From an uncultured Chloroflexia bacterium (GTDB lineage: Bacteria > Chloroflexota > Chloroflexia > QHBQ01 > JADMIH01), in the NCBI GenBank assembly GCA_963797095.1, contig CAWCNY010000005.1, positions 576,001-640,000 on the forward strand: a DNA stretch of 64,000 nt, given 5' to 3'. Under the pieces are notes generated by a model, which was not told the DNA's origin, ran no database searches, and saw only the letters and a program-made list of their open reading frames with translations. Shown here piece by piece: positions 29,878 through 33,339 of this stretch (position 1 is its first letter; every line of letters begins with the position of its first letter). The translations under genes were made by a program, and so were the position numbers.

Positions 29878-30056
29878 TTTGCTGTACCTCGGTCTTTATG
29901 GTTTTGGGGATTAGTTGGCAGCCTTTTCCCTAGTATAAAACTTTCGGTCAGACTGTGTGAGCAGGGCTTTCAGGGGAGCCAGCCATGACCCTGAGGGTCA
30001 CCAGCGTGTAATGAAAATGAGGGGCTGGCGCGCTCCGTGCTGTGCTATATTCCAGA

Positions 30057-30288
30057 CACTCTGAGCGCAACAAGGTCGGGATACGTTGGTGCATGCAGCT
30101 TTGCTGCCGCGAGCCCGCAGGAGGAGTCTGACCCTGGTGTCCTAAGGCACCGTTGATTGTTGCTCCCGACAGCTACTACTCGGCGTATCCGGGTAACTGT
30201 AACAAGTTTGATAAGCCTGGTAACCCTGGTAACCTGAAGGGAAGCACGTAGAGCAGAATTCTACTAATAGGTGGACACCATGCTCAGT
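30057..30288 (+). ncRNA. Candidate IS110 bridge/seek RNA, copy 1
   Basis: Non-coding leader with blocks conserved in copy 2. Pairings are CTGAGC/GCTCAG, CAACAA/TTGTTG, GGTC/GACC, CTCCC/GGGAAG and GGTGTCC/GGACACC. An extended -10 (TGCTATATT) lies just upstream. Confidence 0.65.
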
Positions 30289-30346
30289 TGTCTTGCAAGC
30301 AACTAAACAGACAAGTAATCAGGCAACCGGACAGGAGGTATCTGCT

Positions 30347-31597
30347 ATGCAAGTGGTTTATGAGCGCTGTTGTGGATTGGACATACACAAGAAGACAGTA
30401 GTGGCTTGTCTTATCACGCCGAACTCTAATAAACAGGAACTGCCTTTGCCTCATAAGGAAGTCAGGAGTTTCGGTACCATGACTAATGACCTGCTGCAGT
30501 TGTCAGACTGGCTCATGGCCAACAGTGTGACAGCAGTGGCCATGGAATTGACCGGAGTTTATTGGAAACCGATCTACAACCTATTGGAGGGAGAGTTTGA
30601 ACTGCTCTTGGTCAATGCCCAGCACATCAAAGCAGTGCTTGGTCGCAAGACCGATGTACGCGATTGTGAGTGGATCGCCGACTTGCTCAGACACGGCCTG
30701 CTGAGAGGCAGTTTCGTACCTGATCGCCCCCAACGGGAGTTAAGGGAACTAACACGATACCGCACGCAATTGATAAGAGAACGCTCTACTGAGGTCGACC
30801 GGTTGCAGAAGACGTTGGAGGGAGCCAATATCAAGCTGGCAAGTGTTGCCACCGACATCATGGGAGTATCGGGGAGGCAGATCCTTTCGGCGTTGCTGGA
30901 CGGACAGGTCGATGAGCGAGCGATGGCGGAACTTGCCAGGGGGCGGATGAGGGAGAAGATACCCCAACTGCAAGAGGCACTCCGAGGATGCTTTGGTGCC
31001 CATCAACGCTTCATGCTAGCTCACCAGTTAGCCTTGATCGACGTGCTAGACGCATCGATTGAGGGGTTGAGCCGCGAGATAGAAGAGAGGGTGAGCCCTT
31101 TTCAGTTGGCGTTGGACTTGTTGGTGACGATCAGGGGAGTGGGGCAGCGCACAGCGGAGGTGATCGTCTCTGAGGTAGGAGTTGATATGAGCCGATTTCC
31201 CACATCTCGGCATCTGGCCTCGTGGGCAGGGATGTGTCCTGGCAACAACGAGAGTGCAGGTAAACGCAAGAGCGGTAGGACCCGTAAAGCTAATCCGTGG
31301 CTGAGAACGGCATTAGTGGAGGCCGCTCAAGCAGCTGCTCACTGCAAACAGAGTTACCTGTCAGCACAATACCACCGGATAGCCAGGCGTGGAGGTGCCA
31401 ACAAAGCTGCAGTAGCTGTAGGTCATACTATTCTCGTTATTGCTTATGAGATGCTGACGCATCAAACCACCTACAATGAGTTGGGAGGAAACTACTTCCA
31501 TGAGCGAGACCGCAAGGCCAAAGAGCGGCGTCTGATCCATAGCCTGGAGCGACTTGGATACAAGGTTTCACTTGAGCCGGTTGCTTCGGCTGCATGA
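30347..31597 (+). CDS. IS110-family DEDD recombinase/transposase
   Basis: GLDIHK, AMELTG, KTDVRD and GNNESAG; intact frame; GGAGG RBS. Confidence 0.95.
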   Translation: MQVVYERCCGLDIHKKTVVACLITPNSNKQELPLPHKEVRSFGTMTNDLLQLSDWLMANSVTAVAMELTGVYWKPIYNLLEGEFELLLVNAQHIKAVLGRKTDVRDCEWIADLLRHGLLRGSFVPDRPQRELRELTRYRTQLIRERSTEVDRLQKTLEGANIKLASVATDIMGVSGRQILSALLDGQVDERAMAELARGRMREKIPQLQEALRGCFGAHQRFMLAHQLALIDVLDASIEGLSREIEERVSPFQLALDLLVTIRGVGQRTAEVIVSEVGVDMSRFPTSRHLASWAGMCPGNNESAGKRKSGRTRKANPWLRTALVEAAQAAAHCKQSYLSAQYHRIARRGGANKAAVAVGHTILVIAYEMLTHQTTYNELGGNYFHERDRKAKERRLIHSLERLGYKVSLEPVASAA

Positions 31598-31706
31598 ATT
31601 CCAGTTATTTTCAGAGGAGAGGAGTTTGTCATGTCGCTGGGGACACCAGCGTATGAATGAAAATGGTTGAGCCACCCCTTGACCATGTGCTATGCTACTC
31701 GTTAGG

Positions 31707-31904
31707 CACTCTGAGCGCAACAAGGTCGGGCTTGGTCTGGTGCTGCGAGCCCGTAAGAGCAGTTTGACCTGGGTGTCCCGAGGCACCACGTATTGTTGCT
31801 CCCATGCCTGTCCAGGCATCACCACTGTTGTGGGTCGGTGATTGGGTTGGGGATGGGAAGCACGCACAGCAGAATCTGTGATCAGGTGGACACCTCGCTC
31901 AGTG
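31707..31904 (+). ncRNA. Candidate IS110 bridge/seek RNA, copy 2
   Basis: Same conserved paired blocks with different loop lengths; TGCTATGCT extended -10 upstream. Confidence 0.65.
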
Positions 31905-31939
31905 TCATGGTAAGTGTCATTTGTCTTAGCAATCTGAAC

Positions 31940-31997
31940 GAACGCGAACGCGAACGCGAACGCGAACGCGAACGCGAACGCGAACGCGAACGCGAAC
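31940..31997. repeat. (GAACGC)x9 microsatellite
   Basis: Lies between the candidate RNA and the transposase RBS. Confidence 0.95.
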
Positions 31998-32018
31998 AGG
32001 GCATAGGAGGTGGCTACG

Positions 32019-33287
32019 ATGCAAGTGGTTTATGAGAGATGCTGCGGGTTGGACATTCACAAGAGGACAGTAGTGGCTTGTATAATCTTGCCAGGAACGC
32101 TGGGACCCACCGGCCAACCCACCGGCCAACCCACCAAGGAAGTCAAGAGCTTTGGCACCATGACCGATGATCTGCTCCACCTGTCCGACTGGCTCCTCTC
32201 CCATCGAGTGACCCATGTGGCCATGGAGTTGACAGGGGTCTTTTGGAAACCCATTTACAACCTGTTGGAAGGGCAGTTCGAGCTTTTGTTGGTCAACCCC
32301 CAACACATCAAGGCGGTGCCTGGTCGCAAGACTGACGTGCGAGACTGTGAGTGGATTGCCGATCTTTTGCGTCACGGGCTGTTGGCTGGGAGTTTTGTGC
32401 CTGACCAGGGACAGCGAGAGCTTCGGGAATTGACGCGCTACCGCACCCAGTTGATAAGGGAGCGTGCTTCTGAGGTCAACCGACTGCAGAAGACGTTGGA
32501 GGGGGCCAACATCAAGCTGGCAAGTGTCGCTACTGACATTACGGGAGTATCGGGGCGTCAGATACTGCAAGCTTTGTTGGAGGGGCAGAGCGATGAGCGA
32601 GCAATGGCCGAGCTTGCCAGGGGGCGCATGAGGGAGAAGATACCGCAGTTGGAGGCGGCTCTCAAAGGGAGGTTCAGAGCACATCAGCGCTTTATGGTAG
32701 CCCAGCAGTTGGCCCACATAGACTTCCTGGACGAGGCCATTGAGAAGGTGAACATAGAGATAGAGGCAAGAATGGCCCCTTTTGGGTGGGCGCTGGACCT
32801 GTTGGAGACGATCCGGGGAGTGGGCCAGCGCACGGCTGAGGTGATCATCGCAGAGATAGGGGTTGATATGGAGCGTTTCCCCACCTCCCGCCATTTGGCA
32901 TCGTGGGCTGGGATGTGTCCTGGGAACCATGAGAGTGCGGGTAAGCGTAAGAGTGGCAAGACACGTAAAGGCAATGTGTGGTTGCGAACGGCGTTGGTGG
33001 AGGCCGCTCAAGCGGCGGGGCGGTGCAAAGGGAGCAAGGAGAGCTACTTGTCTGCTCAGTATCGGAGGATAGCCCGCAGTGGTGGGTCCAACAAAGCGGC
33101 GGTGGCTGTGGGCCACTCTATTCTGGTAATTGCCTATGAGATGTTGAAGCATCAAACCACCTACAACGATTTAGGTAATGGTTACTTTGATGAGCGAGAC
33201 CGGCAAGCAAAAGAGCGGCGGCTGATACATAGTTTGGAGAAGCTGGGATACAGGGTCTCTCTTGAGCCTCTCCCTTCAGCTGCCTGA
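32019..33287 (+). CDS. IS110-family DEDD recombinase/transposase
   Basis: GLDIHK, AMELTG, KTDVRD and GNHESAG; intact frame. Confidence 0.95.
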   Translation: MQVVYERCCGLDIHKRTVVACIILPGTLGPTGQPTGQPTKEVKSFGTMTDDLLHLSDWLLSHRVTHVAMELTGVFWKPIYNLLEGQFELLLVNPQHIKAVPGRKTDVRDCEWIADLLRHGLLAGSFVPDQGQRELRELTRYRTQLIRERASEVNRLQKTLEGANIKLASVATDITGVSGRQILQALLEGQSDERAMAELARGRMREKIPQLEAALKGRFRAHQRFMVAQQLAHIDFLDEAIEKVNIEIEARMAPFGWALDLLETIRGVGQRTAEVIIAEIGVDMERFPTSRHLASWAGMCPGNHESAGKRKSGKTRKGNVWLRTALVEAAQAAGRCKGSKESYLSAQYRRIARSGGSNKAAVAVGHSILVIAYEMLKHQTTYNDLGNGYFDERDRQAKERRLIHSLEKLGYRVSLEPLPSAA

Positions 33288-33303
33288 TCCTGAGTTATTT
33301 TCA

Positions 33304-33339
33304 CAGCAGCAGCAGCAGAGCAGAGCAGAGCAGAGCAGA
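33304..33339. repeat. (CAG)n then (AGCAG)n simple repeat at the IS110 right junction
   Basis: cagcagcagcagcagagcagagcagagcagagcaga. Confidence 0.85.

Follow-up and report, generated by a model that had tools for sequence, protein, structure and literature searches.

Two tandem IS110-family elements with a candidate bridge RNA whose guide order is opposite to that of IS621

Bridge recombinases are under development as programmable genome-rearrangement tools. To our knowledge, the bridge RNA mechanism is known almost wholly from IS621 and its close relatives. IS900-group elements insert between the ribosome-binding site and the start codon, and no literature linking a bridge RNA with IS900 was found.

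In the published accounts drawn on here, the IS621 bridge RNA carries its bottom-strand guides (the left-target guide, LTG, and left-donor guide, LDG) 5' of each stem-loop and its top-strand guides (the right-target guide, RTG, and right-donor guide, RDG) 3' (PMC11208160, PMC11208158). The available description of the IS1111-type seekRNA, for example that of ISEc11, has the order of the target segments for top-strand and bottom-strand pairing reversed relative to the IS110 type, and gives these elements subterminal inverted repeats, 11-13 bp long, that are extended towards the termini by 7 bp at the left end and 3 bp at the right end (PMC11187229). The accessible text of a preprint reports 86 bridge RNA models over 32,190 loci, many of which "visibly deviate" from the IS621 structure and still covary with target and donor (bioRxiv 10.64898/2026.10.21.760802).

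The locus described here lies in a window of 64,000 nucleotides from an uncultured Chloroflexia bacterium (contig CAWCNY010000005.1), and all coordinates are window positions. It holds two tandem IS110-family insertion sequences, and the ~200-240-nt 5' leader of each most probably encodes a bridge (seek) RNA that directs the DEDD/Tnp recombinase. As read from the sequence, this is a known kind of guide RNA on a scaffold that differs from that of IS621, with the guide order opposite in both loops.

Two tandem elements and their ends

The elements, their genes and their junctions are as follows.

29970..29978, + strand: left target plus core of copy 1 (TCAGGGGAG)
29979..31619, + strand: IS110-family element copy 1; left end begins CCAGCCATG, right end is TTATTTTCAGAGG+AG
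30347..31597, + strand: recombinase gene of copy 1, 416 aa
31620..31624, + strand: AGGAG spacer from the right end of copy 1 to the left end of copy 2
31625..33309, + strand: IS110-family element copy 2; left end begins TTTGTCATG, right end is TTATTTTCACAGC+AG
31644..31654, + strand: segment lying subterminally in the left end of copy 2 (CACCAGCGTAT), with a same-sense repeat in the L5 strand of the leader (CACCACGTAT)
32019..33287, + strand: recombinase gene of copy 2, 422 aa
33295..33309, + strand: right end of copy 2, in which ATTTTCA is the inverted repeat of left-end TGAAAAT

Judged by domain matches, the products of both genes have a DEDD RuvC-like domain and, after it, a Tnp (Transposase_20) domain. 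Copy 1 matched Pfam PF01548 at 1.8e-29 and PF02371 at 5.2e-24, and copy 2 matched the same families at 8.4e-30 and 2.3e-24. The NCBIfam model NF033542, "IS110 family RNA-guided transposase", has a cut-off of 140 bits and scored 279 bits on copy 1 and 291 bits on copy 2. The copy 2 recombinase is a distant relative of the IS621 protein (8wt6), with a partial alignment at E 1.7e-15.

The element ends have conserved landmarks. GAAAA is found at position +35 of the copy 1 left end, and in 45 of 47 distinct left ends of relatives its distance from the predicted start of the left end is 33-39 nt. TTTTC occupies the right-end place, as in copy 2, in 37 of 38 right junctions. The left target of copy 2, GAGAGGAG, consists of positions 31617-19 plus the spacer. 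The 9-mer that precedes copy 1 also precedes a partial twin copy elsewhere on the contig, and upstream of it the two flanks diverge. A 99.9% identical copy of copy 2 is present on contig C8 with a different right flank. The gene and right end of copy 1 are 94% identical to those of another copy whose leader differs, and copy 1 looks like a chimera in which the leader of one lineage has been joined to this gene and right end. A search for an empty site in 20 relatives did not recover the right flank, and no empty site was found.

The leader RNA scaffold across relatives

The leader features in the two copies are listed below; the -10-like motifs are putative.

30043..30051, + strand: extended -10-like motif TGcTATATT preceding the copy 1 RNA
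30056..30295, + strand: candidate bridge RNA of copy 1, covariance-model match of 184.4 bits
P1 30061-66/30282-87, P2 30074-77/30130-33, P3 30136-42/30273-79, P4 30163-67/30239-44, + strand: helices of copy 1
31688..31696, + strand: extended -10-like motif TGcTATGCT preceding the copy 2 RNA
31706..31910, + strand: candidate bridge RNA of copy 2, covariance-model match of 213.2 bits
P1 31711-16/31897-902, P2 31724-27/31766-69, P2a 31728-31/31749-52, P3 31772-78/31888-94, P4 31799-803/31855-60, + strand: helices of copy 2

A covariance model, R1, was built from four copies in the source genome. R1 gave 69 matches in 88 sources, corresponding to 57 of 80 homologous loci, and almost all of them are located just upstream of the recombinase gene. 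The gap between the end of R1 and the start of the called ORF varies between -29 and +99 nt, most values being 12-35 nt. The fetched records place the clade in Chloroflexota, Bacillota and other phyla.

The scaffold appears to be specific to this clade, with P1 as a closing stem around two modules. Module 1 would be the target loop (P2/P2a), and module 2 would be the donor loop, running from the long-range helix P3 to P4. In an alignment that was itself fitted to the model, 92.0% of cells on 60 distinct rows are paired versus 69.0% after shuffling. Both-side changes occur in 25 of 26 pairs, and 0 of 500 shuffles reached the observed values; as the sequences are related, they represent fewer independent events than n. 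When the partner was shifted by 1-3 columns, the paired cells dropped to 33-49%. Pairing by helix is 93.8% for P1, 97.5% for P2, 97.1% for P3, 91.7% for P4 and 74% for P2a. At the level of structure, these values argue for a conserved, structured RNA in the long non-coding end beside the recombinase gene.

A sequence-only reading of the window had described five helices shared by the two leaders. The CTGAGC/GCTCAG, GGTC/GACC, GGTGTCC/GGACACC and CTCCC/GGGAAG blocks are present in both and these four helices covary strongly, but the fifth, CAACAA/TTGTTG, is paired in 57.8% of cells with little covariation and was rejected as an unconserved helix. The pseudoknot that had been proposed from this helix against GGTGTCC/GGACACC is unsupported because CAACAA/TTGTTG is poorly paired and scarcely covaries. 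Another candidate pseudoknot, GGUGCY with RGCACC, is paired in 85.5% of cells; both of its sides are conserved, with double changes in only 3 cells.

Each leader had also been placed just after an extended -10. The motif letters occur in both copies, and relatives have similar TGnTAnnnT motifs at the equivalent place, but a two-hexamer scan called no canonical promoter on the + strand. Single-sequence folding z-scores of the two leaders, -0.65 and -0.86, are uninformative. Rfam returned no family at E<=1 in the region save two chance-level matches within genes, and Rfam 15 may hold no bridge RNA family.

Guide segments and their junctions

The candidate guide segments are positioned as follows.

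30117..30129, + strand: segment A of copy 1, G plus left-target guide plus core AG (30125-26) plus a 3-nt tail
30143..30157, + strand: L5 strand of copy 1 (TAAGGCACCGTTGAT), on the donor loop's 5' side
30249..30256, + strand: left-donor guide plus core of copy 1 (TAGAGCAG)
31732..31738, + strand: position of the right-target guide in copy 2, TTGGTCT, immediately 5' of the conserved GGUGC (31739-43)
31753..31765, + strand: segment A of copy 2, G plus left-target guide AAGAGC plus core AG (31761-62) plus tail TTT
31779..31793, + strand: L5 strand of copy 2 (CGAGGCACCACGTAT)
31865..31872, + strand: left-donor guide plus core of copy 2 (CACAGCAG)

In the proposed arrangement, the hairpin loop of module 1 would present a short right-target guide, complementary to the core and the right-flank top strand and placed 5' of GGUGC. 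The 3' strand of module 1 would present segment A as the left-target guide, which ends in the core and continues 2 nt into the element's own left end. The left-target guide runs in the sense of the left flank and would therefore pair with the bottom strand. On the 3' strand of module 2, segment B would consist of CACG, the left-donor guide and the core in the sense of the element's right end. The 5' strand of module 2 would carry L5, a same-sense repeat of a left-end segment that lies ~16-30 nt inward.

Segment A repeats the host DNA to the left of the element together with the element's first 2 nt. The longest word shared by segment A and its own 150 nt of upstream DNA has a mean length of 7.94 (n = 50) versus 4.78 in 2,692 non-cognate pairs. 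A same-sense diagonal connects alignment columns 95-104 with target position -5 through left-end position +2 (n = 49). The guide words are wholly different among elements and track the host flanks, as in CCTAAG, TCAGAG, CTATAAC and GGGTAG. In one MAG, seven copies all follow (TC)AGGAG and their guide is TCAGGAG. C6 of the source genome carries two identical copies with different flanks, CACCTAAG and CCCCTAAG, against a segment A of ACCTAAG, and this pair fixes the element ends exactly. In 38 of 49 junctions, with eight dinucleotide types, the segment A tail and the left end begin with the same 2 nt; shuffling gave a mean of 8.5 and a maximum of 18. Left-junction anchoring relied on segment A itself, a dependence that is mitigated by the register-free test, by GAAAA as an independent landmark and by the multi-copy elements. 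Rows with a shared word of <6 letters were unanchored in the junction tests, and both window copies are among them on the left side. One reverse-strand match (L068:123-333) was excluded from these tests, and identical rows and junctions were counted once. Segment A corresponds to the left target including the core across the family, and the fit is weak in the window copies.

The right-target guide lies in the first hairpin loop (columns 43-50), 5' of the left-target guide (columns 94-102). Complementarity to the core and right target extends to 4.92 of 9 positions versus 3.40 (n = 37), and 0 of 5000 permutations were as high. The match extends over 8 contiguous nt in the elements at loci L055 and L046. 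The effect is modest, at 0.36-0.46 per position versus 0.25-0.27, and is seen only in the position-specific tests, being absent from the top 30 cells of the aligned-column comparison. In copy 2, the fit is limited to the core complement CT plus three distal bases.

Segment B repeats the element's right end. The word that it shares with its own downstream DNA is 7.44 letters long (n = 34) versus 4.89 in 1,114 non-cognate pairs, and columns 276-282 equal the right end at 95-100% identity over 7 columns (38 junctions). Segment B thus holds a left-donor guide that matches the right end of the element including the core. In 51 of 53 distinct RNAs, segments A and B have an identical core dinucleotide (AG in 32, AA in 11 and AC in 8), and its second base is 0.90-0.98 identical to the junction. 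Both loops and both junctions therefore share the core. An AG core had been proposed for these elements, and it is present in both window copies, but across the clade the A is followed by G, A or C. A candidate hairpin of the donor guide with its own tail is 58.6% paired in the alignment and is weak in a register-free comparison, at 4.57 versus 4.06 with wobble and 3.27 versus 2.78 without (n = 51).

All the letters, coordinates and matches listed in the sequence-only reading were found in the sequence. CACAGCAG recurs at 33302-33309, the right end of copy 2, and AGAGCAG (31756-31762) matches AGAGGAG (31618-31624) at 6/7. The tail TTT of copy 2 segment A equals the first bases of its own left end. 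The copy 1 left-target guide, CAGGAGGAG, matches its left target at 5/9 ungapped and at 8/8 with one bulged RNA base. TAGAGCAG matches the copy 1 right end, CAGAGGAG (31612-31619), at 6/8 and matches the copy 2 target guide at 7/8. The head-to-tail pile-up in the window can be attributed to one element's target guide being equal to another's right end. At a threshold of 6 shared letters, segment B of copy 2 against its right end is the one comparison in the window that passes; both left junctions and the copy 1 right end fall below it. The claim that the segments match their junctions holds across relatives, but the window copies are among the family's poorest guide-to-junction fits.

These weak fits bear on a rival explanation, a chance likeness of short purine-rich words in a leader that is a structured 5' UTR controlling transposase expression and has no guide role. 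Three of the four guide-to-junction comparisons are weak in the window, the words are just 6-8 nt long and purine-rich, and the leader contains a terminator-like hairpin with a U-rich run, so the matches in the two window copies alone could be chance. Across relatives the matches are far beyond chance. Cognate pairs score well above non-cognate pairs for segments A and B, the guide words vary completely by element in step with the host flanks, and the core covaries between the loops. The chance explanation is already contradicted by these guide-junction and core correspondences, and we regard it as extremely improbable. The check that had been suggested for the guide proposal, a covariance model combined with loop-junction covariation, came out in its favor, since both segments follow their junctions across homologs. 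A bridge RNA with a fold unlike that of IS621, as had been proposed, is supported by the helices, guides and core of 60 distinct homologous RNAs.

L5 repeats left-end positions of approximately +16 to +30 in the same sense. The word shared by L5 and the left end is 6.59 letters long versus 4.95 (n = 46), and 0 of 2000 permutations were as high. Covariation of the RNA stretch from segment A to L5 with the junction is restricted to the two ends of the stretch. The whole left end as a paralogue of this stretch was considered and rejected; the middle scored 2.69 against its own left end, 2.54 against others and 2.67 after shuffling (178 of 1000 permutations).

Segments A, B and L5 could instead act as DNA, either as extra recombinase-binding sites or as gene-conversion copies, with the folded leader employed otherwise. 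Segment B and L5 each repeat, in the same sense, part of the element's own ends, as a DNA-repeat model also predicts, and covariation within the element fits RNA and DNA alike. Segment A, however, follows host DNA outside the element and varies among elements, and the hairpin loop holds a segment that complements the right flank. The segments also occupy fixed single-stranded places of an RNA scaffold with compensatory changes, and in the available reports IS621, ISEc21 and CazIS110-1, of the same protein family, are experimentally RNA-guided. A purely DNA-level role is accordingly judged very unlikely, and guide segments in an RNA are preferred.

A guide complementary to the core and the start of the left end, as expected for an IS621-type right-donor guide, gave no signal (cognate 4.67 versus non-cognate 4.69, n = 49). 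This result bears on a third alternative, an ordinary bridge RNA of the IS621 type, in which each stem-loop has its bottom-strand guide on the 5' side and its top-strand guide on the 3' side; the layout described here would then stem from an incorrect fold. A local hairpin, GGUGUCC/GGCACC, is possible in both window copies and could be read as the stem-loop that follows segment A. The 5' arm of this hairpin covaries with the distant 3' arm instead (P3, 97.1% paired with 7 of 7 double changes), and GGCACC is invariant. The right-flank complement is located 5' of segment A, nothing 3' of segment B is complementary to the left-end start, and no Rfam match was obtained at E<=1. An ordinary IS621-type RNA has, in our judgment, very little chance of being correct.

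Proposed mechanism and comparison with known systems

The bridge RNA would be transcribed, bound by the recombinase and paired with DNA as in IS621, and L5 may read the right donor. Since the target guide and L5 follow the integrated left junction colinearly, one RNA could zip along the left target, the core and the left end. This layout would be suited equally to excision and insertion. The GGUGC of the target loop and the GCACC of L5 may dock and join the two loops. The right donor would be read on the bottom strand twice, by the 2-nt tail and by ~10 nt of L5, with no core-adjacent top-strand guide. Tentatively, this arrangement could be a distinct architectural class, combining an IS1111-like guide order with an IS110-like position, although we consider this reading, with its twofold recognition of the right donor, doubtful.

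The clade would perform the same job on a differently wired RNA. This RNA differs in that the guides of both loops are in reversed order, the second core base varies, the target guide runs across the integration junction and a canonical right-donor guide is lacking. The clade would widen the design space and yields testable ideas on recognition of the right-donor end.

Several features agree with the published description of IS621. The RNA maps to the long non-coding end on the left, upstream of the gene for a DEDD + Tnp recombinase (PMC11208160, PMC11208158). It has two guide-bearing modules with the target before the donor, left guides in the top-strand sense with a 2-nt core common to target and donor, and a short right-target guide complementary to the top strand. 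Other features differ from that description. The recombinase is only distantly related, at 416-422 aa versus a 328-residue chain, and the core is A[G/A/C] rather than CT. The same-sense guide, 5' of the stem-loop in IS621, is 3' in both loops here, which is not the IS621 layout. In the donor module the closing helix is long-range and surrounds the P4 hairpin, and the left-target guide extends 2 nt into the right donor. In place of a core-adjacent top-strand right-donor guide, a same-sense strand copies a subterminal left-end segment.

The present clade may be among the 86 published models, and the accessible preprint text describes no layout like the present one (bioRxiv 10.64898/2026.10.21.760802). 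The ISEc21 seekRNA and the CazIS110-1 bridge RNA are likewise reported as upstream non-coding RNAs bound by or purified with the recombinase. A feature in their published description resembles the junction-spanning segment A. Compared by description, ISEc21 has the top-strand match 3' of the bottom-strand match, and the present clade has the opposite order.

The present elements are not IS1111-type elements. The non-coding region is downstream of the gene in the IS1111 type as described and upstream here (PMC11187229), and the inverted repeat is ~7 bp and asymmetric, the left arm being 33-39 nt inside its end and the right arm ~8 nt inside the other. The clade nevertheless shares with the IS1111 type the reversed order of target segments (PMC11187229) and the possession of subterminal inverted repeats, here ATTTTCA / TGAAAAT.

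Tandem IS110 elements and their relatives in the same genome

Two IS110-family elements lie head-to-tail in the window, separated by an AGGAG spacer, and two defective relatives were located elsewhere in the genome.

29979-31619: IS110-family element copy 1, head-to-tail with copy 2
31625-33309: IS110-family element copy 2, head-to-tail with copy 1
C5:63119-63754, minus strand: defective twin of copy 1, truncated about 290 nt into the gene
C2:669316-670325, minus strand: defective relative of copy 2 with an internal deletion, missing the RNA 3' half and the gene's 5' part

Both window elements carry intact recombinase genes (416 aa in one, 422 aa in the other) whose products share 81% protein identity. 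Domain searches identified DEDD_Tnp_IS110 and Transposase_20 in both proteins, which score far over the cut-off of the NCBIfam 'IS110 family RNA-guided transposase' model. The solved IS621 and ISCro4 recombinases are distant kin (E = 1.7e-15 and 3.2e-13, partial alignments). Both recombinases also show, at residues of about 189-345, a weak, sub-threshold likeness to the TIGR-Tas RNA-guided endonuclease model of NCBIfam (30-33 bits against a cut-off of 100). In copy 2, the gene has an in-frame 12-nt repeat, ACCCACCGGCCA (2.6 copies, 32105-32135), close to its 5' end, a place where copy 1 differs. A non-coding left end of about 370-400 nt precedes each gene. A perfect hexamer array, CGAACG in 9.8 copies (31939-31997), separates the RNA from the start codon in copy 2.

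Another tandem pair lies on contig C8; its first element (L002; C8:92450-92740 compared) has a third, diverged leader, and its second shares 99.9% identity with copy 2. Contig C6 contains two identical, more distant copies with different flanks, which diverge immediately before CCTAAG on the left and immediately after CAGAGGAG on the right, fixing the element ends exactly. Where copy 2 has its hexamer array, a 10-nt array, GGATCAGATC, occurs in the C6 copies.

A conserved leader RNA scaffold

The sequence-only reading proposed that both leaders encode a bridge RNA with five paired blocks and an AG core. Its words and coordinates were all correct on re-reading of the window sequence, and alignment of the two leaders showed that the paired blocks are conserved and the loop lengths vary. 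The extended -10-like motifs that it placed ahead of the leaders were found by direct reading, but a simple promoter scan of the plus strand called none.

The covariance model that it had suggested was built from four leaders, with helices P1 (closing), P2, P2a, P3 (long-range) and P4, and was searched against the copies in the genome and 80 homologous public-genome loci, mostly from Chloroflexota and in part from Bacillota and other groups. There were 69 matches covering 57 of the 80 loci; the 23 unmatched loci have mostly the most distant proteins or truncated upstream DNA. Nearly all matches stop a short way upstream of the gene, with a gap from model end to called ORF start of -29 to +99 nt (mostly 12-35 nt). 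Paired cells made up 92.0% of those observed versus 69.0% after shuffling (60 distinct rows), figures that overstate independence because the rows are related and were aligned by fitting to the model. Both-sided changes occurred in 25 of 26 pairs, and the observed values were reached by 0/500 shuffles of the 60 rows. Sliding the partner by 1-3 columns lowered pairing to 33-49%. Pairing was 92-98% in P1, P2, P3 and P4 and 74% in P2a. The diversity of pair types at single positions (five to six in P1 and P3, for example) is nonetheless hard to explain other than by conserved pairing. In the long-range helix, the first C8 element has GGGTATC/GATACCC in place of GGTGTCC/GGACACC, a compensatory change. 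The fifth block of the sequence-only reading, CAACAA/TTGTTG, was paired in 57.8% of cells and is not a family feature.

The P4 loop varies widely in length across the family, and the enlarged P4 hairpin of copy 1 contains a 9-nt repeat, TAACCCTGG (2.6 copies, 30212-30234). A local GGUGUCC/GGCACC hairpin followed by a U-rich run gave terminator-like calls at 30135-30152 and 31772-31787. It competes with P3 and sits between the target and donor modules; if it were a terminator, it could yield an RNA with the target loop only.

Guide segments and element junctions

Two segments of the scaffold are highly variable among elements. Segment A (G, 6-7 variable bases, the core dinucleotide and a 3-nt tail) lies between P2a and the P2 3' arm, and segment B (CACG, 6 variable bases, core and tail) lies between P4 and the P3 3' arm. 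The guide-junction matches of the window by itself are not above chance. At a threshold of six shared letters, the sole pair to pass was copy 2 CACAGCAG with its own right end, a perfect fit of the donor guide; both copy 1 guides and the copy 2 target guide fell below the threshold against their own junctions.

The family-wide comparison bore out the predicted loop-junction covariation. In a register-free test, the longest word shared by segment A and its own 150 nt upstream was 7.94 versus 4.78 for non-cognate DNA, and the values for segment B and downstream DNA were 7.44 and 4.89. In a positional comparison, the left flank's final five bases, the core and element bases +1 and +2 are repeated in the same sense by segment A (n = 49). 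Segment B repeats, also in the same sense, the right end's final five bases and the core (95-100% identity, n = 38). When the junction was anchored without the tail, the tail opened with the same two bases as the left end in 38 of 49 junctions (shuffled mean 8.5), with eight different dinucleotides represented. An independent check on this boundary came from a conserved GAAAA, which follows the predicted left-end start by 33-39 nt in 45 of 47 distinct left ends. In 51 of 53 distinct RNAs, the cores of segments A and B agree; the proposed AG is the commonest (32 RNAs), and AA (11) and AC (8) also occur. In IS621, the left-target and left-donor guides are the same-sense segments containing the core, and they pair with the bottom strand according to the text of Durrant et al. 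2024 (PMC11208160) and Hiraizumi et al. 2024 (PMC11208158), and by analogy segments A and B correspond to these guides.

Right-hand counterparts were looked for by complementarity and likeness. The P2a hairpin loop contains a conserved (U)GGUGC, and immediately 5' of it the reverse complement of the core plus right flank recurs, matching over 8 contiguous nt in L055 and L046, 7 in L089 and 8 of 10 positions in one C6 copy. In a fixed register, the complementary fraction over the first four flank positions was 0.36-0.46 versus 0.25-0.27 (n = 28; 0/5000 permutations), and with two registers allowed 4.92 versus 3.40 of 9 positions were complementary (n = 37 related elements; 0/5000 permutations). 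There is thus a short right-target guide, located 5' of the left-target guide. No complement to the core plus left-end start was found anywhere in the RNA (4.67 versus 4.69). The donor-loop 5' strand (L5; A-GGCACC-N6-8 ahead of a conserved UGUYG) instead repeats, in the same sense, a left-end segment located after a small terminal hairpin, with matches of 12/12 in L093 and 8-11 nt in L051, L081, L041, L050 and L077. The word shared by the whole L5 and the left end was 6.59 for cognate and 4.95 for non-cognate pairs (46 related elements), and the variable last 8 nt gave 5.30 versus 4.05; 0/2000 permutations were as high in either case. We infer that L5 may stand in functionally for a right-donor guide and act on the bottom strand; the alternative is that the likeness is a shared protein-binding motif. 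The RNA stretch between segment A and L5 was rejected as a left-end relative, having no similarity to the left end. Both sides of a proposed loop-loop pairing are invariant.

Segments A and B are ACCTAAG and AGAGGAG in the C6 leader. In the first C8 element, segment A is TCAGAG (flank GGTCAGAG) and segment B is AGAGGAG, compared with its right end. The actual right end of copy 1, AGAGGAG, is the one specified by this C8 RNA. From start codon to right end the two elements are 94% identical, and their leaders are unrelated (window 29979-30356). Copy 1 thus looks like a recombinant of two lineages, whose guide no longer matches its own right end. Copy 2 has the target guide AAGAGCAG, which matches the left flank of copy 2, GAGAGGAG, at 6/8 and the copy 1 donor guide TAGAGCAG at 7/8, so copy 2 appears programmed to insert after the type of right end that copy 1 RNA specifies.

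Insertion sites and comparison with known systems

Many elements are flanked on the left by a right end from their own family (ATTTTC, 6 nt and core), as at window 31605-31625. Seven loci (L023, L027 in its second hit, L031, L033, L050, L063 and L068) hold elements directly after another element's right end, and the target guide of L031 is nearly its own donor guide. Stacking head-to-tail appears habitual in the clade. A search of 20 relatives for the right flank found no empty site.

One MAG contains seven copies of a single element (L035-L040 and L095), all right after (TC)AGGAG, and the six with an anchored right flank (L035-L040) have an ATG start codon 3-7 nt past the right end. This arrangement places the element between a Shine-Dalgarno site and its start codon, and the AAGGGAG right end would provide a replacement Shine-Dalgarno site. 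The copy 2 right end leads directly into a (CAG)n/(AGCAG)n array (33304-33339), and the C8 copy has the same array in another copy number ahead of the flank divergence; the array may be either target DNA or element-made.

The IS621 loops are described in the text of PMC11208160 and PMC11208158 as a stem, bottom-strand guide, stem-loop and top-strand guide, with a CT core. The window clade differs in having the opposite guide order in both loops and in using a long-range helix to close the donor loop. Siddiquee et al. (PMC11187229) describe in their text two target-matching segments whose order is reversed between IS1111-type and IS110-type RNAs. The guide order of the window clade is IS1111-like, but unlike IS1111-type elements its non-coding region is upstream and its inverted repeat is short and asymmetric (ATTTTCA/TGAAAAT). 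Diverse bridge RNA structures were already reported in the text of Durrant et al. 2024 (PMC11208160), and that of a 2026 preprint (bioRxiv 10.64898/2026.10.21.760802) describes 86 models, many deviating from IS621. Judged against the text of these earlier reports, the predicted window-clade RNA is a bridge RNA of a kind already known, and its layout is a variant.
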